Shown in pieces: positions 2 to 20,898 of a stretch of DNA of 47,772 nt (positions are counted from its first letter, which is position 1; each line of letters opens with the position of its first letter). Source of the DNA: a virus (lineage: Duplodnaviria > Heunggongvirae > Uroviricota > Caudoviricetes). The stretch lies in the IMG/VR virus record IMGVR_UViG_2698536610_000001. One strand, 5' to 3'. The position numbers were made by a program, and so were the translations under genes. The notes below the pieces were generated by a model. The model was not told the origin of the DNA. It made no database searches and worked only from the letters and a program-made list of their open reading frames with translations.

Positions 2-1297
2 TTAATTTTTCATTGCTTCGTTATGGGGCATGGTTGGGGCAAACTCGCTTAACTGTGTATTTAACAAAGCTACCTGTGCATTATTGTTTTCAGACATCCA
101 TTTTCCGTATACCTGAAATACCATTTGCGCATCTGCATGGCCCATCTGGTTTGCTATAAATGCTGGGTTAGCACCAGCTGTCAGCGACCAGCAGGCATAA
201 GTATGTCTCGACTGATATGATTTTCGATGGCGGAGTCCGGCACGTTTTATCGCTGCGTCCCACATCTGCCTTATTGAGTCAACGGTAAAATGGTCACCAT
301 AATTTTTTACTCTCGCTGACACTTCAGGTTGAAAAACAAAGGTGCATTTATGTTTTTCTGTTCTGCCATACTCTCTGAGGTGAACATCAATGATATGCTC
401 TTTGCTCAGTCTCGTTAATGTCATCTGACTCCGGAGAGCGTCGATTGCTGGCTTAATAAGATGAATGACCCGATTGGTTCCCGCCTGTGTTTTTGGTACC
501 GTGAAACGGTCTTTTGCTAAATTTCTCCTGATCATCATTGTTCCATTTTTCAGATCTATGTCCTCCCATCCAAGTGCACACAGCTCACCAGGGCGAACGC
601 CAGTATAAACAGAAACACACCATAAATTTTTGGCTTGCTGATTTCTGCACGCATCGATAAGACGGATGAATTCCTCCCGCGAAAGAGGATCCGGAATGGT
701 TCTTGATTCCTTTAATGGCGAGATCCCCTTAAACGGGTTATCTGCCAGGTAACCGTTATCAACACCAAACTGGAACACGGCGTTAAGATTTGTCATGTAA
801 TTATTTACAGTTACAGCCGATCTCCCTGGTTGTGTAACAATATAGTTACTTTTGGGGATCTGGTATCCAGTCAGTAGCTCTTTACGAACCTCCAGTAATT
901 TTTCTTTATTAATCGATGAGGCAAGATTTTTTTCACCGATTATGCTCAGGATATTTTTGATGACGGCACGGTATGTGTTGAGTGATGTTTTTGCGACTTC
1001 AGTTTCTTTCAGTGCCAGAAATTTTTCAGCCAGTTCTTTTATGGTTAAATCTTGTCGGGCCTCACCAAATTTTTCCAGATTGCGTGAGGAGGGAAACTGT
1101 TTTGCATAGTCGAAAACACCAGTTTTTATTGCGTAACAAACAGAGGCGCGTAGCTCACCTGCAACGCGCCTGTTTTTTGCTGTGTCAGGAACCCCCAGGT
1201 TTTCCCTGACTCTTACGCCTTTATAAACAAACCAGATACGTAATTTCCCTCCATGGTTTTCCACGCCTGTCGGATATTTCATTTCAACTTCTCTCAT
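2..1297 (-). CDS. int: Phage tyrosine integrase (site-specific recombinase), Rac/Qin-type
   Basis: 431-aa ORF; C-terminal catalytic region with the R...H..R...Y pattern (…HRKSYQSRHTYACWSL…GHADAQMVFQVYG); N-terminus resembles lambdoid prophage integrases; sits at the prophage edge next to an excisionase-like gene. Confidence 0.9.
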   Translation of the reverse strand: MREVEMKYPTGVENHGGKLRIWFVYKGVRVRENLGVPDTAKNRRVAGELRASVCYAIKTGVFDYAKQFPSSRNLEKFGEARQDLTIKELAEKFLALKETEVAKTSLNTYRAVIKNILSIIGEKNLASSINKEKLLEVRKELLTGYQIPKSNYIVTQPGRSAVTVNNYMTNLNAVFQFGVDNGYLADNPFKGISPLKESRTIPDPLSREEFIRLIDACRNQQAKNLWCVSVYTGVRPGELCALGWEDIDLKNGTMMIRRNLAKDRFTVPKTQAGTNRVIHLIKPAIDALRSQMTLTRLSKEHIIDVHLREYGRTEKHKCTFVFQPEVSARVKNYGDHFTVDSIRQMWDAAIKRAGLRHRKSYQSRHTYACWSLTAGANPAFIANQMGHADAQMVFQVYGKWMSENNNAQVALLNTQLSEFAPTMPHNEAMKN

Positions 1298-5818: not shown

Positions 5819-6226
5819 TTATCTTTTATTTGTCCGCTGACGGGCTTTTAGTAATTCTTCAAAGAGTTTATTGAAGTTTTTTACTCGAGCTCGCATTTCG
5901 GCGAGCTGGGTATCCTGTTCTGATTCTGGCAGTGCATTAAACAGCTCAAGGAGCTCTAGTTCTTTGGGGGATAAGGCAACTGGCTTCTCAACAGGTGGTG
6001 TTGGTTGCTTGTCTTCATCGCCAAATAGAATCCATGTTGGTGAGCATTGCAATACTTTGCTGAGGGCAAAAAGGTTCTTCCCTGTAGGTTCACTATCATC
6101 CCGTTCCCATTGTGATACAGACACATGGGAGATTTTCAGGGCTTTAGCAAGAGACCTTTGGGTGTGTTTGAGGTTTTTCCGACGATACCTAATGCGTTCG
6201 CCGATAGTTAAATTTTTTGTTTCCAT
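5819..6226 (-). CDS. dicA: DicA-type HTH (XRE family) repressor, CI-like immunity repressor
   Basis: 135-aa ORF METKNLTIGERIRYRRKNLKHTQRSLAKALKISHVSVSQWERDDSEPTGKNLF… matches remembered DicA; divergent from dicC; palindromic operators on both sides. Confidence 0.85.
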   Translation of the reverse strand: METKNLTIGERIRYRRKNLKHTQRSLAKALKISHVSVSQWERDDSEPTGKNLFALSKVLQCSPTWILFGDEDKQPTPPVEKPVALSPKELELLELFNALPESEQDTQLAEMRARVKNFNKLFEELLKARQRTNKR

Positions 6227-8031: not shown

Positions 8032-8463
8032 GTGGCAAAAGTTTTTACACAAGAAGAGCGGGAAAAAATTAAAGGGCAGGTGGTGGAACTCGTGCGCCAG
8101 AGCGGTCGTGAGACGCTACGGCAACTGGAAGCTAAAACAGGTGCGACAAGATATCTGATGAGCGTTCTTGCCAGAGAGCTGGTTGCCAGTGGCGATGTAT
8201 ACAACTCCGGCTACGGGTTATTCCCCTCTGAACAGGCGCGTAAGGACTGGCAAAACGCCCGCAAAAAACTCTCGAGGGCAAAGATGAAGAAAACAGCTGT
8301 GGTTGATCCGGACCTTATCTGGTCGTTACCTGATGGAGAAATACGCCGCTACGACAGTCGCCTAAACATAATCTGTCGCGAGTGCCGGAAGACTGAAGTT
8401 ATGCAGCGCATACTCGCATTCTATCAGGGAAATGCTCGATATCTATTGAAGCGACGAGATTAA
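8032..8463 (+). CDS. Hypothetical phage protein (possible DNA-binding protein), GTG start
   Basis: 143-aa basic ORF after the replication gene; start codon uncertain. Confidence 0.4.
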   Translation: MAKVFTQEEREKIKGQVVELVRQSGRETLRQLEAKTGATRYLMSVLARELVASGDVYNSGYGLFPSEQARKDWQNARKKLSRAKMKKTAVVDPDLIWSLPDGEIRRYDSRLNIICRECRKTEVMQRILAFYQGNARYLLKRRD

Positions 8464-8786
8464 AGAGCATTAGTTCAGATGTGAATTGACATTTTCGTGG
8501 CACAAGATTAGCGCTAGCGTGGTCGTTTGGTTTGTGCCAAGAGCGGATAATGCTGACATTCCTATGCACTAATTAACGCAGAGCAAGCCAGTTAGTTGGT
8601 TATGGAAGTAAGTTGTAGCCAGCAACTATCACCATCGGAGATATTTAGGGGGATGCACTCTAAGTTGTAGTTACTTTATAATGTCACTTTCAAAGCGGAA
8701 GCTTGTACAAAAGATGGATAAGCTTTTGTATAGTATGGGATTCAAGAATCACTAAAAGATGACAACAGTACTTACAGGATGTGGCT

Positions 8787-9026
8787 ATGATCCGAATTAT
8801 GATTAGAATATTTTCTTTGACATTCGTTGCTTGCGCTGGCTTTGCTGCATATCACTTCAATAGTGTGCCATTGATGTTCACTTCTGGTAGCTTTCTTGTA
8901 ACATTTTTAGGTACATTTATTGTTAATAAAAAAAGTTCAGGGCATACAATAATTCAAAAAAGCGGTAGCCATTCAAAAAATAATCAGACGGTCGTTTTTG
9001 GAAATAATGAAAACAAGCGAGGCTGA
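8787..9026 (+). CDS. Small membrane protein with two predicted TM helices (cassette gene A)
   Basis: ATG 8787 with AGGA upstream; hydrophobic stretches IFSLTFVACAGFAAY and FTSGSFLVTFLGTFIV; stop 2 nt before gene B; AT-rich. Confidence 0.5.
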   Translation: MIRIMIRIFSLTFVACAGFAAYHFNSVPLMFTSGSFLVTFLGTFIVNKKSSGHTIIQKSGSHSKNNQTVVFGNNENKRG

Positions 9027-9028
9027 TC

Positions 9029-9625
9029 ATGGTTGGTGTTACTCAAAGGTCAGGGAATTACTCACGTAATGTGCAGGTGGTTGTCGATTCTAACTCTGTT
9101 GATATTATAAAGTCTCCATCGATTTTTATGGATCTTGTTGGTATTTTAGTTGATTCGAATGTTATTGATCCTCGTACAAACAATGACTACGAGCCATATG
9201 ATATTGAGAATAAAATAGACTTCAATGATGTTATAAAACATAGAGAACGTATTGAAGGGTTCTATCTATATTCTTCGATGATAGATAAAGCGTATGAAAC
9301 ATTAAATGAAAGTATGCCTACTGCTAAGGAAACGGCACTGAAAAGCATCAATTCACGATATCTTGATTGTCAAGGAGATTTATTGCTTAAACATAGAGAA
9401 GCGTATAAGAGCTGCAAGGATGCTCAGGAACGGAATAATTTAAAGATTCAATTGGTAAGAGAGTTTGCAGATTGGATAATAGACAGTGTAATAGAGCACA
9501 TCATTAAGAAATGCTTAAATTCTCTTATGGCAATGAATTACACAAGCGAAGAAATCGAATGCCATGCTTCTTTTATCGTTTATCATGCATTCGTAGAGTG
9601 TAAGATTCTGGAAAAACCAATATGA
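9029..9625 (+). CDS. Hypothetical 198-aa protein (cassette gene B)
   Basis: Tightly coupled to A upstream and C downstream (ATGA overlap); no motif recognised. Confidence 0.55.
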   Translation: MVGVTQRSGNYSRNVQVVVDSNSVDIIKSPSIFMDLVGILVDSNVIDPRTNNDYEPYDIENKIDFNDVIKHRERIEGFYLYSSMIDKAYETLNESMPTAKETALKSINSRYLDCQGDLLLKHREAYKSCKDAQERNNLKIQLVREFADWIIDSVIEHIIKKCLNSLMAMNYTSEEIECHASFIVYHAFVECKILEKPI

Positions 9626-9858
9626 TTATCTCTGATGTAACAAAACCAAGCCAAACCTTGTATTACCTGGGGGCTCGGTTATTAGAATGCATGAGTTCAA
9701 ATGCTTATTCGTATGTTGATATTATAGACTTGTATAATGAATTCAAATCTAAAAATAACAACTCTTCATTCACGCAATATATTTACACTTTAAATTGGCT
9801 ATATTTATTAGGCCTGGTTGATGCTAACGAAAATGGAGATTTGATATTATGTTTTTGA
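9622..9858 (+). CDS. Hypothetical 78-aa protein (cassette gene C)
   Basis: Overlaps B by 4 nt and D by 10 nt; small, probably helical. Confidence 0.5.
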   Translation: MIISDVTKPSQTLYYLGARLLECMSSNAYSYVDIIDLYNEFKSKNNNSSFTQYIYTLNWLYLLGLVDANENGDLILCF

Positions 9859-11573
9859 AACGGCTAATAGTCAGTTCTTTCAGGCTTGGAGTGATTCGTG
9901 ATATCGAATTTCACATTGGCGTTAATTTGATTATTGACCGAAACACCTCCAGCAAAGAGCAAACTGGAAATGGTGTGGGAAAAACTACTGTATTAAGAGC
10001 TTTAGATTTTTGTTTTGGAGCAGAACAACTGAATTTTTATACCGATCCTGAATTCAAGAAAGAAAATTCGGTTATAAAAAATTATTTGATAGAGAACGAG
10101 ATTGAGTTTTGTTTAATTCTCACAAAAGATTTGAATAATAAAACTGCACCAGTAATAAAAATTAAGCGTAAAATTACATCTGAGACTAATAAAACGAAGG
10201 TTATAGCCTCAATAAATGAAGAGTCCTATACGAAGGCTAAAGATTTCAACGAGGCTTTAAAAAGAACATTATATCTTGATTCCGCGATAAAACCGACCAT
10301 ACGAGAGATTATGGGACGTGTTATTCGAAATACGCATGACAAGATGTCGAACGCATTAAAAACGATAAAAATGGGTTCTAATACACAATATGAAACGTTA
10401 AATCTGTTTATGTTTGGGTTCGGTAACTCACAGATTCTGGATGAAAAACAGTCAGTGACTAAAGCCTATAAACTGGCGAAATCCGATTATGAAGTAATTA
10501 CTCGCCATCGCTCAAAGAATGCTTTGGAACAAGCTATTGCAATTATAAATAGAGATATTATAGCACAAGAAGAGTTAATTTCTAATTTTCAAGTGGCAGA
10601 CTCTTATAATGATATGCTTGCTGAGTTAAATGAGTTAAAAATTAAAATTAGTGAAGTTTCTATCATACTATCATCTTTGGAGTTTAAGCAAAAATTAAAC
10701 GATAAGGCTATACTAGATCTGGAAAAAAGTCATGAAAATATAAATACACTAGATCTACAGAAGTTGTACTTAGAAGCAACTGATCGGTTAGGTAACTTAA
10801 ACAAAGAGTTTACTGAGCTACTTTCGTTTCATAATAAAATGCTTGTAAAAAAAGCTGAGTTTATTAGAAAACAAATGCAGCCAGTGCTGCAAGAAATTTC
10901 CAAATATAAAGATGAACTAAATAACTTATTGACTCAAGAATCAGAGCTTTTAAAGAGTTTGTCTTCGCATGGGACATTGGCAGACCTGCAAATAATGCAA
11001 AAAAAATTAAATTCATTATTTGAAGAAAAAGGTGGGCTTGAAGCTGGACTACTTCAAATCCAAGAGATGGAGAACAACTTTAATATACTGAAAGCAAAGT
11101 TTAATGATGTGTCAGATAGATTAAAATCTAAACTTGACGATTTTAACAAACGTCTTGCGCTATTCAATTCCTATTTTTCTTTATATACTAAAAAATTATA
11201 TCAGGATGAATATATTCTTTCCTATAAAGATTCCTCCGGTTCTTTCGTTTTTACCATTGAACCTTTAGGAACTTTGCTCACATCAGGTAATCAGGGAGAA
11301 GGAAAAAAGAAAGCCCAGGTTGCCTCTTTAGATTTTGCCTATTTATCTGTCCAGGAGTCTTTAGAAGCCAGAACACCACGTTTTATAGCTCATGATGGAA
11401 TTGAGGCAATTCATGTAAATCAAATAAATAAGTTATTCGAGATAGCTTCGGGGATTAATGGTCAATATATATTGGCTATTCTTAAAGACAAGTTGGAGAA
11501 TATTGATCAAGACTTCATCAATAATAGTGTTGTGCTTGAGCTTGGGGAGGACGATAAGTTTTTTAGGCTTTAA
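9849..11573 (+). CDS. ABC-type P-loop ATPase with long central coiled coil (SMC/Rad50-like architecture) (cassette gene D)
   Basis: Walker A GNGVGKTT at aa 40-47 (nt 9966-9989); heptad-rich helical region roughly aa 220-440; C-terminal signature-like TSGNQGEG, Walker-B-like RFIAHD and a following His. Confidence 0.7.
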   Translation: MFLKRLIVSSFRLGVIRDIEFHIGVNLIIDRNTSSKEQTGNGVGKTTVLRALDFCFGAEQLNFYTDPEFKKENSVIKNYLIENEIEFCLILTKDLNNKTAPVIKIKRKITSETNKTKVIASINEESYTKAKDFNEALKRTLYLDSAIKPTIREIMGRVIRNTHDKMSNALKTIKMGSNTQYETLNLFMFGFGNSQILDEKQSVTKAYKLAKSDYEVITRHRSKNALEQAIAIINRDIIAQEELISNFQVADSYNDMLAELNELKIKISEVSIILSSLEFKQKLNDKAILDLEKSHENINTLDLQKLYLEATDRLGNLNKEFTELLSFHNKMLVKKAEFIRKQMQPVLQEISKYKDELNNLLTQESELLKSLSSHGTLADLQIMQKKLNSLFEEKGGLEAGLLQIQEMENNFNILKAKFNDVSDRLKSKLDDFNKRLALFNSYFSLYTKKLYQDEYILSYKDSSGSFVFTIEPLGTLLTSGNQGEGKKKAQVASLDFAYLSVQESLEARTPRFIAHDGIEAIHVNQINKLFEIASGINGQYILAILKDKLENIDQDFINNSVVLELGEDDKFFRL

Positions 11574-11859
11574 GATTTGTAATTTGATAGATATGTAGAT
11601 ATCATTTTTCTCGCTCAAAACTGACAGTCAGATTTGAGCGAATTGCTTATGTAAGTATTTCGCAGAATCATGCCATTTATATTTATTAGAACATACGTAC
11701 TTTAAATGTGGGAGGCTGTCATGTTGGTTCTTAAATGTTCGCTGACTATTGCGGTGGTGCGGGCAATTTATTGTTCTGTTATTCTTATGGATCGCCTTTC
11801 TGACTGATTTCATATTGGCGAGATAACGGGAGTTAAGTAGAATGCCTGCGGGTGCTTGA

Positions 11860-12018
11860 GGCTATCTGCCTCGGGCATGAATACCAACGGCAGATAGAGA
11901 AAAGCCCCAGTTAACATTACGCGTCCTGCAAGACGCTTAACATTAATCTGAGGCCAATTTCATGCTAGACACATGTAGGTTAGCCTCTTACGTGCCGAAA
12001 GGCAAGGAGAAGCAGGCT
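11860..12018. promoter_or_regulatory. hok/mok mRNA leader; expected location of antisense Sok RNA (not mapped)
   Basis: Inferred from hok/sok locus organisation; mok ORF begins at 11962. Confidence 0.35.
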
Positions 12019-12174
12019 ATGAAGCAGCAAAAGGCGATGTTAATCGCCCTGATCGTCATCTGTTTAACCGTCATAGTGACGGCACTGGTAACGAGGAAAG
12101 ACCTTTGCGAGGTACGAATCCGAACCGGCCAGACGGAGGTCGCTGTCTTCACAGCTTACGAACCTGAGGAGTAA
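12019..12174 (+). CDS. hok: Hok/Gef family type I toxin (mok in-frame extension from 11962)
   Basis: MKQQKAMLIALIVICLTVIVTALVTRKDLCEVRIRTGQTEVAVFTAYEPEE; the 70-aa upstream extension MLDTCRLASYVPKGKEKQA… resembles Mok; GGCGAGGGA-GAAA-TCCCTCGCC stem-loop at 12182-12203. Confidence 0.8.
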   Translation: MKQQKAMLIALIVICLTVIVTALVTRKDLCEVRIRTGQTEVAVFTAYEPEE

Positions 12175-12244
12175 GAGACCCGGCGAGGGAGAAATCCCTC
12201 GCCACCTCTGATGTGGCAGGCATCCTCAACGCACCCGCACTTAA

Positions 12245-12270
12245 CCCGCTTCGGCGGGTTTTTGTTTTTA
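12245..12270 (+). terminator. Rho-independent terminator after hok
   Basis: CCCGC-TTCG-GCGGG hairpin followed by TTTTTGTTTTT. Confidence 0.65.
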
Positions 12271-12390
12271 TTTTCAACGCGTTTGAAGTTCTGGACGGTG
12301 CCGGAATAGAATCAAAAATACTTAAGTAGCGCGCAGGGAGAAGAGGGATGGTCCCTTAAAGGGGAGAGCTAATTATCCGGAAGGATTCTG

Positions 12391-12654
12391 ATGATGAACA
12401 TGATGATGAACATCGAAGAACTGCGTAAAAATTTTTGTGAAGATGGCCTCTATGCTGTGTGCGTTGAAAATGGAAATCTTGTTAGTCATTACCGCATTAT
12501 GTGTTTGCGAAAGAATGGGGCTGCGTTAATTAATTTTGTGGATGGTCGAGTGACAGACGGATTTATCTTGCGCGAAGGTGAGTTTGTCACTTCATTACAG
12601 GCACTGAAAGAGATCGGAATAAAAGCTGGCTTTTCTGCTTTTTCAGGAGAATAA
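12391..12654 (+). CDS. Hypothetical phage protein (87 aa)
   Basis: GGAAGGA Shine-Dalgarno; unusual MMNMMMN start; no motif recognised. Confidence 0.45.
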   Translation: MMNMMMNIEELRKNFCEDGLYAVCVENGNLVSHYRIMCLRKNGAALINFVDGRVTDGFILREGEFVTSLQALKEIGIKAGFSAFSGE

Positions 12655-12720
12655 ACTCATCTACAATCTTGCGCGGGGCTGAACTCCCGCTGAGTAACAC
12701 CGTGCCACCGGAGAAAACCG

Positions 12721-12999
12721 ATGGCACGCAACGCAAAATATTACAATTCTGATAATTCGCCCGTTCTTGCCTGCACGCACGGGCGGTATTCTCACGCATT
12801 CAAGTCTGAATGGTTCCAGCACCCTCCATGCACTGAAGAGCAGGCTGAATGGATAATTCAGTGTTACCGCAGGCGCGGATACGAGGTTAAGAAAGCCCTT
12901 AGTCTCGACTACCGTCACTGGATAATCTCAGTCAGATTGCCTTACTCCGAACGCCCACCGCGTCCGTCCCGTACATTCCAGCAACGCATCTGGAGGTAA
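12721..12999 (+). CDS. Hypothetical phage protein (92 aa)
   Basis: GGAGAAAA SD; stop is 1 nt before the DUF968 gene. Confidence 0.45.
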   Translation: MARNAKYYNSDNSPVLACTHGRYSHAFKSEWFQHPPCTEEQAEWIIQCYRRRGYEVKKALSLDYRHWIISVRLPYSERPPRPSRTFQQRIWR

Positions 13000-13000
13000 C

Positions 13001-14050
13001 GTGCGGGTATTACTTCGACCTGTTCTGGTACCGGAACTCGGGCTGGTGGTCGTTAAGCCGGGCCGTGAATCCATGCCGGTATTCCACAATACCCGGGTAC
13101 TGGTGGAGCCGGAACCGAAAAGCATGCGTAATCTGCCGTCCGGGGTCGTTCCTGCCGTTCGCCAGCCGCTGGTGGAAGACAAAACATTGCTGCCGTTTTT
13201 CAGTAATGCACGGGTAATTCGTACTGCTGGTGGTGCTGGTGCATTGTCTGACTGGCTGTTGCGCCATATTAAATCCTGCCAGTGGCCACACGGCGATTAT
13301 CATCACAGCGAAACCGTTATTCACCGTTATGGTACCGGCGCAATGGTGTTGTGCTGGCACTGCGACAACCAGCTGCGTGACCAGACATCCGAATCACTCG
13401 AGCAACTTGCTCATCAAAACCTGTCAGCATGGATGATTGACGTCATCGGTCACGCAATAAGCGGTACGCAGGAGCGTGAATTATCTCTGGCTGAATTATC
13501 CTGGTGGGCGGTCCGCAATCAGGTGGCGGACGCGCTACCGGAAGCGGTATTACGTCGCTCGCTGGGATTACCAGCGGAAAAAAACTGCTCGGTGTACCGC
13601 GAAAGCGACATCGTACCGGGAGAGCAGACCGCCACCAGCATATTGAAACAGCGCACAAAAAATCTTGCACCGTTGCCTCACGCCCACCAGCAACAAAACC
13701 CATCACAGGAAAAGACGGTGGTAAGCATCACCGTTGATCCAGAGTCTCCGGAATCTTTCATGAAGCTGCCTAAACGTCACCGGTGGGTTAAGGAGAAATA
13801 CACACGCTGGGTTAAGACACAGCCGTGTGCTTGCTGCGGTATGCCAGCCGACGATCCGCATCATCTGATTGGTCACGGGCAGGGCGGAATGGGAACCAAA
13901 GCACATGATCTCTTTGTTTTGCCTTTGTGCAGAAAGCATCACGACGAGTTGCATACGGATACCGTGGCATTTGAAGAGAAGTATGGCTCCCAACTGGAGC
14001 TGATTTTTCGATTTATCGATCGCGCGCTGGCAATTGGTGTGCTGGCCTAA
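13001..14050 (+). CDS. DUF968 family protein (YdfU-like) with C-terminal Cys/His cluster
   Basis: 349-aa ORF, same length as remembered Qin YdfU; C-terminal [18 protein letters not shown]…CRKHHDELH suggests an HNH/zinc-finger-like motif; GTG start assumed. Confidence 0.65.
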
Positions 14051-14067
14051 TTTTGTGGAGTAAGTTG

Positions 14068-14445
14068 ATGCGTGATATTCAGATGGTTCTTGAGCGTTGG
14101 GGGGCATGGGCGGCTAATAATCATGAAGATGTGACCTGGTCGTCCATTGCCGCCGGTTTTAAGGGATTAATTCCTTCAAAAGTAAGATCTCGTCCGCAAT
14201 GCTGTGACGATGACGCGATGATCATTTGTGAATGTATGGCTCGCCTGAAAAAAAACAACAGCGATTTACATGATTTATTGGTGGACTATTATGTCGGCGG
14301 CATGACTTTTATGGCGCTTGCACGTAAGCATGGGCGATCTGATTGTTGGGTTGGCAGGATGCTCCAGAAAGCTGAGGGCGTAGTGGAGGGCATGCTGATG
14401 GTGTTGGATCTCCGATTGGAGATGGATGCTGATTGTTCGAAATAA
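14068..14445 (+). CDS. Late-gene antiterminator Q (small QuuD/phage-82-type)
   Basis: [26 protein letters not shown]…; about 125 aa; followed by a strong intrinsic terminator (tR' analogue). Confidence 0.65.
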
Positions 14446-14543
14446 TTAAAGGAAAAGTTGCTGTCTGATTTTCATTAGTCTAACATTTTAAATGTTGGAA
14501 TCGCAACGTAGTTATTATCATATAACAGCTTGTTTCCTGATTT

Positions 14544-14572
14544 AGCCAGCCTCCCCAAAGGCTGGTTTTTTT
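14544..14572 (+). terminator. Intrinsic terminator, tR'-like, downstream of Q
   Basis: AGCCAGCCT-CCCCAA-AGGCTGG followed by TTTTTTT. Confidence 0.6.
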
Positions 14573-14600
14573 CTAATAAGTATCATTTCGGGTGGGGATT

Positions 14601-15125
14601 TTATTGTTTAACCCATAATAGTTCATTGACATTGAATCCCAACTTTTGAGCGGTACGCACATAGTCTGCTTTTACATTATCTGGAATAGTTTGGGTCCTT
14701 GCCAGAATCCATAGGTATTCTCTGTTCGGACCACTGACAAGAGCATACTTATACTCATCATCCAGTTTGATTACATTATAGCCACCATAGAAGGGGCCAA
14801 AAAACGAAACTTTCAACGCTGCAGTTTTAGTATCTCCAGTAAAGTATGCTTTACCTTCGCTCTCGCTCCATTTGTTTTTCGTTGGATCGTATCCACGGTT
14901 AAGTACGCGAATCCCTCCGTCGTTCCGTTTTTCATAAGTAGCGCTGACCTGTTCCAGACCACGTTCGAACCAGTTCTCGAGGCGAGCTATTTCATACCAT
15001 TTTCCGAGGTAGCGGTTGGCGTCAAAATTTGTAATCGGCTGCACACCTTTAGGTGGTGTCGGGGCCTTACATGCTATAAGAGTGAAAGAGAGTGCAATGC
15101 CAGTCAACACAGGCCATAACTTCAT
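14601..15125 (-). CDS. Bacterial lipocalin (Blc-like outer-membrane lipoprotein), prophage cargo
   Basis: 174-aa ORF; signal peptide with lipobox LIAC; lipocalin motifs …RYLGKWYEIARLENWFERGLE… and KVSFFGPFYGGYNVI match remembered Blc closely. Confidence 0.85.
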   Translation of the reverse strand: MKLWPVLTGIALSFTLIACKAPTPPKGVQPITNFDANRYLGKWYEIARLENWFERGLEQVSATYEKRNDGGIRVLNRGYDPTKNKWSESEGKAYFTGDTKTAALKVSFFGPFYGGYNVIKLDDEYKYALVSGPNREYLWILARTQTIPDNVKADYVRTAQKLGFNVNELLWVKQ

Positions 15126-15317
15126 AATAAATCCTGTACTTTTGATAGTTGAGAGTAAGTATGAAAGATAGATGAGTACGACCGATCACTTAAAGAACTT
15201 TCCTACTATATTAGGAATAGTCAATAACAGAAAAATTGTCAGTGATGAAGCCAGAAAGGCAATTTAGTCCGTGCACTACAAAGTTTATGTGTTAATGAAT
15301 TAATCAAGGGGGAGGAA

Positions 15318-16277
15318 ATGATAAAAAAACCTGTGATTGGGATCAGCGGTTGTTTGGGCGGTTCTGCTGTTCGTTTTGATGGTGGTCACAAAAGAGATGA
15401 CTTTTTAATGGACAAATTAGTGGAATGGGTAACATTCAGACCAGTATGTCCGGAAATGGCTATAGGGCTGCCAGTTCCGCGTCCTGCTCTACGACTTGTG
15501 CGCTCGAAGCAAGGAAATATACGGATGTGTTTCAGTCACGACCAGAATGAGGATGTGACAGAGAGAATGACAGAGTTTAGTCGTTCTTATATGGACAAAT
15601 TAAAGGATGTATCGGGGTTTGTGGTTTGTGCTAAATCTCCCAGCTGTGGCATGGAGCGCGTGCGTGTCTATGATGAAAATGGTAATCGAGGTCGTAAAGA
15701 TGGAGTGGGACTATTTACGAGCACTTTGATGGAAAAGTTTTCCTGGCTACCGGTTGAAGAGGATGGGCGATTACATGATCCAGTGCTTCGTGAGAATTTT
15801 ATTGAAAGAGTTTTTGCTTTGCATGAGCTCAATCACCTTTACAAGGAGAAATTATCAAGAAGAGAGTTATTAGCTTTTCATAGTCGTTATAAGCTTCAGT
15901 TGTTGGCGCATAGCCAGGCAGGCTATAAAGATATGGGACCATTTGTGGCTGCAATACACGAGTGGGCGGACCTTGAATCATACTTTGAGGTGTATCGTGA
16001 TAATCTGATGGCGATTCTCAGAAAACCAGCATCACGTAAAAATCACACGAATGTGCTGATGCATATACAGGGGTATTTTAGTAATTACTTAAGTACACGC
16101 CAGCGTAAAGAGTTGAGCGAGGTTATACTTAACTATCGTTCTGGCACATTGCCTCTTCTTGCGCCGTTGACTCTGCTGAAGCATTATCTGGGTGAGTATC
16201 CTAATGATTACTTGCTTACACAGAATTACTTCGATCCCTATCCGGAAGAACTGGCTTTAAGGCTGATGGTGAATTAA
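15318..16277 (+). CDS. DUF523/DUF1722 (YbbK/YbgA-like) fusion protein, prophage cargo
   Basis: 319-aa ORF; N-terminal VIGISGCLGG…CPE and C-terminal helical domain resemble the YbgA-type family; assignment from memory. Confidence 0.55.
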   Translation: MIKKPVIGISGCLGGSAVRFDGGHKRDDFLMDKLVEWVTFRPVCPEMAIGLPVPRPALRLVRSKQGNIRMCFSHDQNEDVTERMTEFSRSYMDKLKDVSGFVVCAKSPSCGMERVRVYDENGNRGRKDGVGLFTSTLMEKFSWLPVEEDGRLHDPVLRENFIERVFALHELNHLYKEKLSRRELLAFHSRYKLQLLAHSQAGYKDMGPFVAAIHEWADLESYFEVYRDNLMAILRKPASRKNHTNVLMHIQGYFSNYLSTRQRKELSEVILNYRSGTLPLLAPLTLLKHYLGEYPNDYLLTQNYFDPYPEELALRLMVN

Positions 16278-16756
16278 CTGTATGCGATATCATCTGAAAG
16301 TGATGAGTTCCTGCATGCAGGATATTTACAATCGTAAAAACTACACTATGATACCCATAGTGTCAGTTTGTATAAAAATCCTGTTCACGCTGAAGAAAAT
16401 ATTGAGATGCAATTTAATGTTGGTAAATATACCAGCCCCAAAATATTTTATTCAATCTGTTTTTATATAAAGATATTTCAAGTGAATATTAAGAGCATAT
16501 AATATTATTATTGCACGCAGCTATTATAATATAACAGATTAGTTTAATGATTTTTTGCGAGTTAAACACATGCTTTTATAGTTGTGATGCAATGAGATTT
16601 TCCTTATTGTTGAACTGGCGAATATTGATTATCCACCTATACTTACCTGGTGTAACCCCAATGATATCAGGTGGATAATATGCCATACATATGTTCTATG
16701 GTGATGCCTCTAATTAGTTGAATCTGATGTATAATACGGGCTTTTGAGGTTATCTC

Positions 16757-17029
16757 ATGGCCAGAGTTAATATTCATTGTCCCCGTTGTCAGTCAGCTCA
16801 GGTTTACCGCCATGGTCAGAACCCTAAAGGCCGTGACAGATTTCGCTGCCGTGACTGCCACCGTGTGTTTCAGCTCACTTATACTTATCAAGCACGTAAG
16901 CCGGGTATGAAAGAGCTGATAACTGAAATGGCCTTTAATGGTGCCGGGGTTCGCGATACCGCCAGGACAATGAAAATTGGTATTAACACCGTCATCCGGA
17001 CTTTAAAAAACTCGCGCCAAAGCGAATAA
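16757..17029 (+). CDS. insA: IS1 InsA (transposition regulator / N-terminal part of InsAB')
   Basis: MARVNIHCPRCQSAQVYRHGQNPKGRDRFRCRDCHRVFQLTYTYQ… with zinc-finger and HTH as in IS1 InsA. Confidence 0.85.
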   Translation: MARVNIHCPRCQSAQVYRHGQNPKGRDRFRCRDCHRVFQLTYTYQARKPGMKELITEMAFNGAGVRDTARTMKIGINTVIRTLKNSRQSE

Positions 17030-17451
17030 CTTCTTCGCCTGTTGCCCATGCTGATGTGGCGCTTATCTGCGAGCTTGATGAGCAATAGAGCTACGTTGGC
17101 AGTAAAGCCCGGCAACACTGGCTCTGGTACGCGTACAACACCAAAACAGGCGGTGTACTGGCCTACACTTTTGGTCCCCGAACCGATCAAACGTGCCGGG
17201 AGCTACTGGCACTGCTTACACCCTTCAACATCGGCATGCTGACCAGCGATGACTGGGGCAGCTATGGCCGGGAGGTGCCGAAGAATAAGCATCTGACCGG
17301 CAAAATATTCACCCAACGCATTGAGCGTAATAATCTGACGCTACGCACCCGCATTAAGCGGTTGGCTCGTAAAATAATCTGCTTCTCACGCTCAGTTGAG
17401 ATCCACGAAAAAGTGATCGGAGCGTTTATCGAAAAACACATGTTCTACTAA
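17030..17451 (+). pseudogene. insB: IS1 insB frame interrupted by an in-frame amber codon
   Basis: The InsB frame (-1 relative to insA) reads …ALICELDEQ*SYVGSKARQHWLWYAYN…; TAG at 17086-17088 replaces the Trp of the remembered DEQWGYVG motif; the distal part (17236-17451) is intact. Confidence 0.55.
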
Positions 17452-17470
17452 TTGGATGCACTACCATCAC

Positions 17471-17847
17471 TTGCATGTCTTGCTATCTTATCTTCAGAGA
17501 AAATAGTGCAAAGGTTTTTATTTGGGTGTCTTAATAGTTTAGGAAGTAAAGTTAAGGCTATTATCCACAAGGATATATCTGCAACATGGAGACTTTGTGA
17601 TATATCTTCAAGACTGTGCCTGAGTGAAAGTTTGTTAAAAAGAAAATTAAAACACGAAGGCTTATCATTTGGTAAACTAAATCTTGAAGAGCGAATGGTG
17701 ATGGCGGAAAGCTTATTAAGCTACAATTTATATTCTGTTGGGAAAGTTGCTGAGATATGCGGTTATGAAAATACGTCATATTTTGTAAGTGTTTTCAGAA
17801 GATATTTTGGTGTTCCTCTCCACAAATATTCATCAAGATTTTTTTAG
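17471..17847 (+). pseudogene. AraC-family regulator, C-terminal HTH fragment (5' end replaced by IS1)
   Basis: The ORF reads out of the IS1 right end; only an AraC-type HTH domain of about 125 aa remains (…YENTSYFVSVFRRYFGVPLHKY…); AT-rich. Confidence 0.5.
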
Positions 17848-18053
17848 AAAAACACATGATGTAACGTGATGCGATTTAATGATTTTGTAATTTTCGTATT
17901 TGATAATTTTATGATGCTTTCAGCTACGCCAGAATAATCGCTGGCGTTTTTCTTTTTGAATAGATGTTCAGGCCTTACGCTAATGTAACTTCTATACCTT
18001 TCCCTCTTCGTTCCGAACCGTGTACACCATCCGTTATTTGCGGAGGTGAGGCT

Positions 18054-18269
18054 ATGAAATCCATGGACAAGTTAACAACGGGCATTGCCTACGGCACCTC
18101 CGCAGGCAGTGCTGGCTACTGGTTTTTACAGTGGCTTGATCAGGTCAGTCCATCACAGTGGGCTGCTATTGGTGTGCTGGGAAGTCTGGTTCTGGGCTTT
18201 CTGACTTACCTGACGAATCTGTACTTCAAAATAAGAGAAGACAAGCGTAAAGCTGCGCGGGGAGAGTAA
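18054..18269 (+). CDS. Class II holin (phage 21 S-type pinholin) with dual-start motif
   Basis: [71 protein letters not shown]; two TM segments; GGAGGTGAG Shine-Dalgarno; Met1/Met4 starts. Confidence 0.85.
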
Positions 18270-18273
18270 TTCA

Positions 18274-18618
18274 ATGACTCAAAACTATGAACTGATTGTG
18301 AAAGGGATCCGCAATTTTGAGAATAAAGTTACGGTAACTTTAGCGTTACGGGACAAAGAACGCTTTGACGGTGAAATTTTTGACCTGGACATCTCGCTGG
18401 ACCGTGTTGAAGGTGCCGCGCTGGAGTTTTATGAGGCAGCAGCCAGAAGGAGCATCAGACAGGTCTTCCTGGATGTTGCTGCCGGGTTATGTGAAGGGGA
18501 TGAGCTGTCGCCGGAAAAGCGCCCCATAATTTTAGAGGCGCAGAATGTGTGGATAACCTACAAAGGAAAGCTACCGGGAAGAATTACTGGTTCTCTGAAG
18601 ACTCCGCCGAAATGGTAA
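18274..18618 (+). CDS. YdfR-like (DUF1327) protein inserted between holin and endolysin
   Basis: 114-aa ORF starting 5 nt after the holin stop; position and N-terminus match remembered Qin YdfR. Confidence 0.5.
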   Translation: MTQNYELIVKGIRNFENKVTVTLALRDKERFDGEIFDLDISLDRVEGAALEFYEAAARRSIRQVFLDVAAGLCEGDELSPEKRPIILEAQNVWITYKGKLPGRITGSLKTPPKW

Positions 18619-20205: not shown

Positions 20206-20898
20206 TCAAATCTTATCTAACTCATTATAGGCTTCGATAATAAAAATTCTGATTTTAATAAGGCATGATTCAATGAAAGGAATTACTTCATGGTCATTCC
20301 CATGGAATCTTATTTTTTTCTCTTCGGTAATGACTATGTTTAAAGGTACACCATTACCACTTCTTTGTAATTTCCCATTTTCGAAAGTAAAGTCTTCTAA
20401 TTTTTTGCCATTGATGTGGTTGTTTTTAAAGAGAATTTTTGCTGAGCTTCCTGCTGTGATTAAACCAAAACCATCTACGCTCACACTTAGGTCTTTAACA
20501 GAACTCTCTTCTCTTAAGGGGATTGGTTGTCTGTGCTTTACTTCATTAGTGAGATTACACATCATTTCCAACCAAGATTCGCCAGTGTGATAATCCTGTA
20601 TAGAAGTAAAAATTTTATATAATGGAGAAGATGATGGTGGGTTTATTTTTAGCGTCTTTGAGAAAAATTTATCAATAAACTCTTTTTTTCCGTAAGGGAA
20701 ATATATTTTGGGGCGCTCATCATTACTGCGTGGAGAAATATATTTATCATAGGTATCATTAGCGAGATACTCTAAGGAACTTCGTAAGTTTTCCAAAATA
20801 GCTTTGACTTTTACAGGCTTGATATGCTGTGTCTGTCTCATTATGTCAAGACTTTCTTCAACTTCTTGCAATAAGTCTAACGAGCCTTCTCTAGACAT
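20206..20898 (-). CDS. Hypothetical 230-aa protein in an AT-rich island (moron)
   Basis: Long ORF in strongly AT-rich DNA where chance ORFs are unlikely; opposite to phage late transcription, in the position lambda uses for bor; no motif recognised. Confidence 0.6.
   Translation of the reverse strand: MSREGSLDLLQEVEESLDIMRQTQHIKPVKVKAILENLRSSLEYLANDTYDKYISPRSNDERPKIYFPYGKKEFIDKFFSKTLKINPPSSSPLYKIFTSIQDYHTGESWLEMMCNLTNEVKHRQPIPLREESSVKDLSVSVDGFGLITAGSSAKILFKNNHINGKKLEDFTFENGKLQRSGNGVPLNIVITEEKKIRFHGNDHEVIPFIESCLIKIRIFIIEAYNELDKI

Follow-up and report, generated by a model that had tools for sequence, protein, structure and literature searches.

What are a lipocalin gene and a DUF523/DUF1722 gene doing between the antitermination gene Q and the lysis genes of a lambdoid phage? 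The window, as we call the whole stretch of 47,772 nucleotides analyzed here, contains a Qin-like lambdoid E. coli prophage in which both genes lie within a 3.6 kb gap between Q and the holin gene. The original prediction assigned the open reading frames at 14601-15125 and 15318-16277 to a Blc-like lipocalin and a DUF523/DUF1722 protein, and regarded them as cargo in the Q-to-holin slot. Coordinates, families and placement all held up, and both genes are intact. The gap also contains an IS1 element (16700-17465) and what is left of an AraC-family gene, and the features are arranged as follows:

14068..14445, plus strand: Q antiterminator of the QuuD/phage-21 type, 125 aa (Pfam Phage_antitermQ, E 8e-51)
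14446..14600, plus strand: post-Q leader, the presumed late promoter region, with a strong intrinsic terminator at its end
14601..15125, minus strand: blc2 (174 aa), running antisense to the late operon and encoding an outer-membrane lipoprotein lipocalin of the Blc family
15126..15317: divergent blc/rudS intergenic region, from alignment with chromosomal loci
15318..16277, plus strand: rudS, encoding a TudS(DUF523)-DUF1722 fusion, 319 aa, co-oriented with Q and the lysis genes
16680..16699, plus strand: 5' end (20 nt) of an AraC-like gene, truncated by IS1, from comparison with the uninterrupted locus L001
16700..17465, plus strand: IS1-family insertion sequence, InsA (16757-17029, recognized by its domains) followed by InsB
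17466..17847, plus strand: AraC-family regulator remnant with C-terminal HTH domains, YdeO/GadX-like (Pfam HTH_18/HTH_AraC)
17926..17947, plus strand: terminator-like hairpin and T-run closing the cassette, immediately before the holin gene
18054..18269, plus strand: class II holin of the P21 type, essQ/essD-like, the first lysis gene (Pfam Phage_holin_2_1, E 1e-34)

The mechanical call of the Q reading frame begins at a TTG start at 14053. Q matches phrog_79 ('anti-termination protein Q-like'), is a 100% match to a 378-nt annotated CDS of L001, and has about 85% nucleotide identity with DLP12 quuD, while the holin counterpart in L001 is annotated as essQ. Q is followed at 100-120 nt by a strong terminator, with a stem at 14544-14567 and a run of seven Ts, which makes it a candidate for tR'. 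Its hairpin is present in both the MFE and the centroid RNA folds (z = -3.9). The post-Q region, which phages 1H12 and IdasGreatGrand have in conserved form, has short motifs in common with the region downstream of DLP12 quuD, and neither consensus scans nor alignment with that region gave a confident -35/-10 pair for pR'. Together with the hairpin at 17926-17947, the candidate tR' brackets the cassette. The second hairpin falls inside the segment that differs from K-12 Qin, and homology with Qin resumes at 18025. In an E-value scan of 13900-18400 against Rfam for RNA genes, the sole match was below threshold and fell on the terminator hairpin, and no tRNA genes were found in the window.

Other lambdoid phages carry cargo in the same slot after Q and a terminator, including stx in Stx phages, the nmpC/lc porin gene in DLP12/PA-2, and cspB/cspF in K-12 Qin. 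In contrast to toxin, porin and cold-shock cargo, the products here are a predicted tRNA-modification eraser and a lipocalin, and we know of no virulence link for cargo of this kind. The two genes differ in orientation. The placement of rudS and the AraC-like remnant is that of stx, 3' of Q/tR', 5' of S, and on the same strand, and stx is likewise necessarily co-transcribed with the lysis genes. In contrast, blc2 is on the opposite strand, as an antisense outer-membrane protein gene like nmpC and lambda bor, the latter being an antisense lipoprotein moron that is expressed in the lysogen. Since rudS lies in sense between tR' and S, any late transcript carried into the lysis genes by Q antitermination includes it, and because it is on this obligatory path, RudS is expected to appear after induction. 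Late transcription runs antisense through blc2, so only rudS can use Q-dependent transcription. The earlier suggestion that genes in this slot are strongly expressed on induction could therefore fit rudS, but not the lipocalin gene.

The G+C content of the cargo is low (0.44 for blc2, 0.43 for rudS, and 0.34 for the AraC-like gene, versus 0.50-0.54 for the flanking phage genes). Third-position values are nearly equal for blc2 (0.41) and rudS (0.40) and differ from those of the AraC-like gene (0.32) and of the flanking phage genes. The cassette thus has the traits of a moron, namely insertion between conserved genes, absence from related phages, and deviant base composition. It is a conserved moron of lambdoid coliphages, placed between the post-Q terminator and the holin gene.

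We found the blc-rudS pair in 1047 of 5426 complete E. coli genomes (about 19%), contiguous with the same Q allele in 1031 of the 1047. The block Q-blc-rudS-araC-holin is present in 12 isolated phages, some of them plaque-forming, and in all 80 of the IMG/VR loci examined, and the cassette is found on two backbones, DUF968-Q and rusA-ylcG-Q. The cargo is a fixed three-gene cassette of blc, rudS and the AraC-like gene, travelling with one Q allele. The original prediction had named two outcomes that would undo it: that the region is host DNA joined by mis-assembly, or that the genes are dead pseudogenes. Either is next to impossible. Neither chance nor mis-assembly can explain an arrangement that more than 1000 genomes and isolated phages have in common, as the same junctions recur in 1031-1047 complete genomes, 12 phage genomes and 80 IMG/VR contigs, and the open reading frames are intact, with dN/dS among phage alleles of 0.07-0.23 for blc and 0.11-0.17 for rudS.

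Purifying selection acts on both genes. It could still be argued that they are functionless hitch-hikers, kept only by being physically locked between Q and the lysis genes, given that the block is inherited with one Q allele, that IS elements or frameshifts disrupt rudS or the AraC-like gene in several lineages, and that no phenotype is known. We consider this improbable, since dN/dS for blc and rudS (0.07-0.23, with dS up to 0.3) resembles that of the essential Q gene in the same comparison (0.04-0.11), and full-length reading frames persist on two phage backbones and in free phages. Phage genome size is limited, and the slot is swapped freely elsewhere, as cspB/cspF in K-12 Qin and nmpC in DLP12 attest.

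The third gene of the cassette has been lost in the window. An intact AraC-like gene (237-243 aa) is present in L001 (position 8239-8952), 1H12 and IdasGreatGrand. In the window it has been destroyed by IS1, whose insertion was accompanied by the loss of 312 bp of the gene (L001 8259-8570 is missing), and the remnant is non-functional. Among the matches listed, only 4 genomes have the same IS1 insertion. We considered YdeO, GadX and AppY as identities for the AraC-like protein and dropped them, as the best hit, to the YdeO NCBIfam model, scored 113 bits against a cut-off of 348.

The rudS product has full-length matches to Pfam 2-thiour_desulf (DUF523, PF04463; residues 7-149, E 2.4e-40, 138 bits) and DUF1722 (PF08349; residues 192-309, E 2.1e-40, 138 bits), and a fusion of an N-terminal TudS/DUF523 domain with a C-terminal DUF1722 domain is the architecture of RudS. 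The [4Fe-4S] ligands Cys12, Cys44 and Cys110, near-invariant in the RudS alignment, are all present, numbered as for RudS_vir and RudS_ST in Table 1 of PMC11417400. In RudS_KT, Glu51, Ser111, Ser113 and Arg60 are catalytic and Ser243/Arg244 bind tRNA (PMC11417400). The protein in the window has Glu46, Arg55, Ser107, Ser109, Ser239 and Arg240, a correspondence based on the cysteine offset and not on direct alignment with RudS_KT. Its direct match to the TudS structure 6z92 is weak. Judged by its sequence, this protein is a RudS-type [4Fe-4S] tRNA 4-thiouridine desulfidase.

Its closest characterized relative is RudS_vir (gp66 of phage 1H12), which is 91.9% identical (dN/dS 0.125), has the same 319-aa TudS-DUF1722 architecture and Cys12/Cys44/Cys110 ligands, and occupies the same place between blc and the AraC-like gene, 3' of Q. 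The alleles differ by 8% at the amino acid level, and the backbone here is Qin-like whereas 1H12 is a lambda-like Jouyvirus. Enzymatic activity is known from RudS_vir, whereas the protein in the window is known from its sequence. When expressed in E. coli, RudS_vir lowered the s4U content of tRNA (Jamontas et al., NAR 2024, PMC11417400), and RudS overexpression diminished the UVA-induced growth delay (PMC11417400). E. coli itself has been described as lacking RudS and having only the stand-alone DUF1722 protein YbgA (PMC11417400). The original prediction had proposed comparison with ybgA, and rudS proved to be no copy of it: K-12 YbgA is a 169-aa, DUF1722-only protein that is 49% identical to the C-terminal half of RudS. 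Since YbgA lacks the catalytic half, rudS is a gain for E. coli and not a duplicate.

The published data also leave some room for a different substrate. RudS_vir seemed to desulfidate tRNA less than other RudS proteins despite good solubility, and had the shortest lag of all RudS proteins when a uracil auxotroph was grown on free 4-thiouracil (PMC11417400), so tRNA is possibly not its sole or main substrate. Phage RudS might then be mainly a TudS-like salvage enzyme that feeds the nucleotide pool from free 4-thiouracil or from 4-thio-UMP released by tRNA turnover during phage growth, and TudS enzymes are known to recycle 4-thio-UMP (PMC10611767). Against this, TudS supported growth in a way that no RudS protein did, and tRNA s4U fell with every RudS protein, including RudS_vir (PMC11417400). 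The DUF1722 domain is moreover fully conserved in the window, down to Ser239 and Arg240, two positions linked to tRNA binding. We therefore think it rather unlikely that salvage is the main role, and regard RudS as a tRNA eraser in what follows.

The blc2 product has a full-length match to Pfam Lipocalin_2 (PF08212, E 7.5e-43), scores 312.6 bits against a cut-off of 267 for the NCBIfam model 'outer membrane lipoprotein Blc' (NF007786), and matches the Blc structures PDB 3mbt/1qwd with E 8e-67. Blc binds lysophospholipids and fatty acids, and E. coli blc has a stationary-phase (RpoS-dependent) promoter. The signal sequence, MKLWPVLTGIALSFTLIAC19-K20, contains the lipobox L-I-A-C19 with Lys at +2 as read from the sequence, and a lipobox Cys followed by a residue other than Asp indicates sorting to the outer membrane. 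Of 19 lambda phages from the infant gut, more than 50% carry a blc moron (Mathieu et al., Nat Commun 2020, PMC6969025). Both that moron and E. coli Blc (PDB 1qwd, 2aco, 3mbt) are, like Blc2, Blc-subfamily lipocalins with a lipoprotein signal. Blc2 is 96% identical to 1H12 gp65 (dN/dS 0.10).

The lipocalin had been taken for a second copy of the host gene. It is indeed an additional Blc paralogue, apart from the chromosomal E. coli Blc, yet the host's own gene is not its closest relative. Blc2 is only 59% identical to K-12 Blc versus 73-80% identical to the rudS-linked Blc paralogues of other genera of Enterobacterales, and it belongs with these in a separate paralogue group that adjoins rudS in Enterobacter, Leclercia, Kosakonia, Citrobacter sedlakii and others. 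Serum-resistance or envelope phenotypes arising from Blc2 are speculation. Another conceivable role is that of a phage-defence or exclusion lipoprotein that masks an outer-membrane receptor, as T5 Llp and Cor do, with rudS as unrelated baggage. With its outer-membrane lipoprotein product and its orientation against the late operon, blc2 does resemble other lysogen-expressed exclusion and conversion genes, and membrane proteins predominate among lambda morons (Mathieu et al., PMC6969025). However, Blc2 belongs over its full length to the Blc subfamily, whose structures are lipid-binding, and its nearest relatives are chromosomal, non-prophage genes adjoining rudS. It also matched no PADLOC defence model (nor did RudS or the AraC-like protein), and we consider an exclusion role very unlikely.

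The adjacency of blc paralogues and rudS on chromosomes bears on where the pair came from. We surveyed one set of chromosomal rudS neighbourhoods from 80 Enterobacterales species (80 loci), and in 35 of them a Blc paralogue 73-80% identical to Blc2 is encoded divergently upstream of rudS. The order is blc|merR-HIUase-rudS in 28 of the linked loci, blc|merR-rudS in 5 and blc|HIUase-rudS in 1; in the last, Citrobacter sedlakii, blc directly adjoins rudS with a phage-like spacer of 187 nt. The chromosomal units correspond to the mlrB (orf242)-orf319 unit of Salmonella SPI-2, in which orf319 is RudS_ST; orf319 and its Enterobacterales counterparts are 69-76% identical to RudS of the window, and among the 80 species loci, 33 have a blc paralogue placed divergently 5' of the merR-like gene. 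Deletion of orf319 in Salmonella had no macrophage-survival phenotype (bioRxiv 10.1101/2021.03.09.434593). In contrast to the chromosomal units, the phage copy lacks both the mlrB-like repressor gene and the hydroxyisourate-hydrolase-like gene, and its rudS lies in the late operon and has a much lower GC3.

These comparisons suggest that blc and rudS were probably captured together from an enterobacterial chromosome. The source would have been a Blc paralogue divergent from an operon of an mlrB-like MerR gene, possibly a hydroxyisourate-hydrolase-like gene, and rudS; after capture the MerR repressor gene and its operator would have been lost and an unrelated AraC-like gene gained. No close donor (>80%) was found among 185,579 species representatives and in a 5.8-billion-protein search, where the best matches were about 80% for Blc and 76% for RudS. 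The linkage of blc and rudS, found within Enterobacterales only, may be a matter of common descent rather than of common function. As for a link to photolyase, none of the 80 chromosomal rudS loci has a phr homologue within 6 kb.

The intergenic region falls into two halves. The one next to blc2 shares conserved sequence with the chromosomal blc/merR spacers, whereas the rudS-proximal one has no chromosomal counterpart, and the MlrB-type dyad of the chromosomal rudS upstream regions, ACTTGGACAA-N10-TTGTGTAAGT, is absent 5' of phage rudS. A possible -10 element for blc2, TCATACTT, is located on the minus strand at about 15152-15160; the chromosomal paralogues have CTACACTT on the blc strand, about 25-40 nt 5' of the start. 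A scan for sigma-70 promoters gave no consensus site between blc2 and rudS. We had also considered AAAATTGT...CAATTT as an MlrA/MlrB operator and dropped it, as the spacing is off by one base. The shared GC3 of blc2 and rudS (0.41 and 0.40) and the conserved blc-proximal half are in keeping with co-capture.

Given the gene identities, catalytic residues, synteny, prevalence and purifying selection that we observed, and the published activity of a 92%-identical orthologue, we lean towards viewing the cassette as a jointly captured moron that combines a late-transcribed RudS s4U eraser with a lysogen-expressed Blc2 envelope factor. When its genes are expressed, and what phage or host would gain from them, we infer. 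Late RudS would convert s4U8 in tRNA to uridine, and lower tRNA s4U would mean less near-UV cross-linking of tRNA and less translation arrest. Because E. coli has no s4U desulfidase of its own, the prophage is the supplier of this activity. Blc2 would most likely be expressed in the lysogen from its own promoter, as an envelope-maintenance factor. We found no expression data for the cassette in the literature, and searches for lipocalins in light regulons and for the RefSeq protein accessions of the cassette returned nothing useful.

A more ambitious extension, which we think unlikely, is that tRNA de-modification is part of a phage induction strategy under sunlight or UV. Such light would cause SOS induction and, at the same time, s4U8-C13 cross-links that stall translation and raise ppGpp; RudS from the late transcript would then erase s4U in a host lacking an eraser, keeping up late protein synthesis and burst size, and the co-captured lipocalin would derive, like rudS, from one ancestral module for light or oxidative stress. 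In that case, rudS would be an auxiliary gene by which the phage acts on the tRNA modification state of the host. That temperate phages manipulate a UV-sensing tRNA modification is a testable idea.

Earlier papers describe both genes from close phage relatives (blc in PMC6969025, rudS in PMC11417400), the system is not of a new kind, and its significance is modest. To this we add the probable joint capture, the selection on both genes, rudS as a gain, the antisense position of blc, and the loss of the AraC-like gene to IS1. Two morons that recur in lambda phages could simply derive from a chromosomal blc/mlrB/rudS neighbourhood minus its repressor. Of the sequenced E. coli strains, roughly a fifth have a prophage-borne gene for a RudS-type tRNA s4U eraser. 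The gene is dispensable, as IS3 interrupts it in E. coli B REL606 and in several other lineages, and the broken copy in REL606 matters for the use of such strains as 'RudS-free' hosts.

The window contains an E. coli prophage that is lambdoid and Qin-like. Its genes start with the integrase, followed by an early region homologous to that of K-12 Qin, and go on through Q and the lysis, terminase, head and tail genes to host DNA at ~46.5 kb. The lipocalin and DUF523/DUF1722 genes named in the original prediction match predicted ORFs exactly, and they occupy the slot between Q and the holin, as it had proposed. This slot is 3.6 kb long and holds blc, rudS, an IS1 and the remains of an AraC-family gene.

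Prophage end and Q-to-holin slot
2-1297 (-), integrase, left end of the prophage
14068-14445, QuuD/21-type Q antiterminator, upstream of the cargo
14601-15125 (-), blc, 174 aa
15318-16277 (+), rudS, 319 aa
16700-17465, divergent IS1, inside the AraC-family gene
18054-18269 (+), P21-type holin, downstream of the cargo

Because homology to K-12 Qin breaks off where ydfU ends (14050) and restarts just ahead of essQ (18025), we conclude that Q and the cargo were exchanged as one block. At this place K-12 Qin has a different Q (ydfT) plus cspF/cspB, and DLP12 has quuD plus nmpC.

The recurrence of the same order and junctions rules out an assembly artefact. The blc-rudS pair (1677 bp), counted as present at 80% or greater coverage of the query, occurs in 1047 of 5426 complete E. 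coli genomes; of its 1208 sites, 1206 are chromosomal. A Q-plus-blc query is contiguous in 1031 genomes. The pair is also found in 12 isolated lambdoid phages (1H12, the Lambda_2E9 group and IdasGreatGrand). Wherever an IMG/VR viral contig was long enough, the order was Q(+) blc(-) rudS(+) araC(+) holin(+) (80/80 loci), on two upstream backbones, a DUF968/ydfU type and a rusA-ylcG type.

The Blc-like protein is a full-length Lipocalin_2 domain with a lipobox (LIAC19), scores 312.6 bits against the NCBIfam model "outer membrane lipoprotein Blc" (cut-off 267) and matches solved Blc structures (E 8e-67). On every feature that can be judged from sequence, it is a member of the Blc subfamily. In the 319-aa protein, a complete DUF523 ("2-thiouracil desulfurase") domain precedes an equally complete DUF1722, and all its sequence-testable features likewise place it in the RudS family. 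Jamontas et al. 2024 (PMC11417400) describe these proteins as [4Fe-4S] desulfidases that turn tRNA 4-thiouridine (s4U) into uridine. The window's RudS is 91.9% identical to RudS_vir, the cloned gp66 of Escherichia phage 1H12 (PMC11417400), and keeps Cys12, Cys44, Cys110, Glu46, Arg55, Ser107, Ser109, Ser239 and Arg240.

Neither gene is a copy of its host counterpart, blc or ybgA. K-12 Blc is 59% identical to the window's Blc, and K-12 YbgA (169 aa, 49% identical to the C-terminal half of the window's RudS) has DUF1722 only, without the DUF523 half, so the prophage rudS adds a function to the host and is not a duplicate. E. coli has been described as lacking RudS and having only the DUF1722 protein YbgA (PMC11417400); this is true for K-12 and untrue for ~19% of sequenced strains.

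The finding itself is already known, since phages whose proteins are 92-96% identical have been reported to carry both genes. Mathieu et al. 2020 (PMC6969025) had listed blc among the morons, present in over half of 19 lambda phages from the infant gut. The PHROGs families of these two genes, phrog_2809 and phrog_3275, are both of unknown function. What we add is a probable shared origin of the two genes on a chromosome, their ~19% prevalence among complete E. coli genomes, a strand argument on late transcription, and the IS1 and IS3 lesions.

A strong intrinsic terminator (stem 14544-14567 plus a seven-T run, z = -3.9) lies 100-120 nt past the Q stop codon, where tR' is expected, and is a candidate for it; the cargo starts 26 nt further on. 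Given that rudS, the AraC-like gene and the holin share the + strand, a Q-modified transcript reaching the lysis and morphogenesis genes would by geometry have to cross rudS in sense and blc in antisense. Being in sense, rudS should be made on induction, while blc cannot come from the late transcript and would need its own promoter, as for lambda bor. The earlier expectation of strong expression of the cargo on induction thus applies at most to rudS. Scanning the blc/rudS intergenic region gave no confident promoter call for blc; a candidate -10 resembles an element conserved upstream of chromosomal paralogues. In orientation rudS is like stx, a sense cargo between Q and S, and blc is like the antisense outer-membrane genes nmpC and bor.

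All RudS proteins tested, RudS_vir included, reduced tRNA s4U in E. coli, and RudS overexpression decreased UVA-induced growth delay (PMC11417400). RudS would strip s4U8, which is sensitive to UVA, from the tRNA of a host unable to do so, and we infer that this removal is the benefit. A more speculative version, in which the removal shields late translation when the sunlight that induces the prophage also cross-links tRNA, seems to us rather unlikely. A rival role for RudS is salvage of thiolated nucleotides; RudS_vir was weaker on tRNA than other RudS proteins and had the shortest lag on free 4-thiouracil (PMC11417400). For the lipoprotein, a role in exclusion is a rival to s4U8 removal as the benefit.

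The cargo could also be a neutral hitch-hiker. Among phage and prophage alleles (the window, 1H12, IdasGreatGrand and L001, a reference prophage locus with an uninterrupted AraC-like gene; dS up to 0.3), blc has a dN/dS of 0.07-0.23 and rudS one of 0.11-0.17 (0.05-0.22 once the near-identical window/L001 pair is counted), comparable to Q (0.04-0.11). These low values indicate that selection keeps both genes in the phage lineage, and they rule out a pseudogene reading. In individual lineages rudS or the AraC-like gene has been lost through IS elements or frameshifts. The cassette's YdeO/GadX-like AraC-family gene is dead in the window, because IS1 enters 20 nt into it and 312 bp are gone relative to uninterrupted relatives. 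Identity to the reference locus falls from 99% before IS1 to 86% after it, which suggests a recombination boundary there; the insertion is common to only 4 genomes among the matches listed. E. coli B REL606 (L091, NC_012967.1 1614655-1617592) carries the cassette in its Qin prophage with blc and the AraC-like gene intact and rudS split by IS3, an interruption also seen in several other strains. Phages mEp332, PhiR70_1 and ev099, which have no blc or rudS, encode AraC-like regulators 46% identical to that of the cassette; such regulators thus seem to recur as lambdoid cargo independently of blc and rudS.

A scan covering one genome per species yielded 80 rudS loci on Enterobacterales chromosomes, with identities of 68-76%. 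In 35 of them, a divergent gene upstream of rudS encodes a Blc paralogue that shares 73-80% identity with the Blc of the window.

Arrangement of chromosomal blc-rudS loci
28 loci: blc(-), mlrA-like merR(+), hydroxyisourate-hydrolase-like gene(+), rudS(+)
5 loci: blc(-), merR(+), rudS(+), without the hydrolase-like gene
1 locus: blc, hydrolase-like gene, rudS, without merR
1 locus (Citrobacter sedlakii): blc directly beside rudS

The C. sedlakii adjacency resembles that of the phage (187-nt spacer vs 192 nt). The Salmonella counterpart of the merR gene is MlrB (orf242), a repressor of orf319, that is RudS_ST (bioRxiv 10.1101/2021.03.09.434593). Phage and chromosomes align in the blc-side half of the intergenic region, and the rudS-side half of the phage region does not align with chromosomes. 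A promoter-overlapping dyad, ACTTGGACAA-N10-TTGTGTAAGT, is conserved before chromosomal rudS wherever the mlrB-like merR adjoins (5900-6000 in locus L042; also L019, L028, L044, L083 and L084), and probably represents the operator at which MlrA/MlrB act on Salmonella orf319; it is absent upstream of the phage rudS copies. GC3 is alike in blc (0.41) and rudS (0.40) and differs from that of the AraC-like gene (0.32), of flanking phage genes (0.48-0.57) and of Enterobacter/Citrobacter orthologues (0.68-0.77). The simplest reading is that the blc/rudS neighbourhood was captured once, its source being either lower in GC or long ameliorated, with the repressor lost and the AraC-like gene gained separately. 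Species-representative and protein searches found no close donor.

A 230-aa ORF on the opposite strand (20206-20898 (-)), in a low-GC patch (0.31-0.34) that follows the Rz-like gene and precedes the terminase region, has no match in Pfam or PADLOC and may be another moron. A low-GC island (~9000-11600, G+C 0.30-0.35) holds two ORFs that form a candidate ABC-three-component (ABC-3C) anti-phage system.

ORFs of the low-GC island
9029-9625 (+), 198 aa, Pfam CTD10 of ABC-3C systems
9849-11573 (+), 574 aa, DUF2326 C-terminus, PADLOC candidate PDC-M68B (E 2.8e-41)

K-12 Qin has relBE/flxA at this place. A HokD/RelF-like toxin ORF (11962-12174 (+)) is kept beside the island, and homology to K-12 Qin (hokD-rem-ydfU) extends from 12005 to 14050 at 94%.
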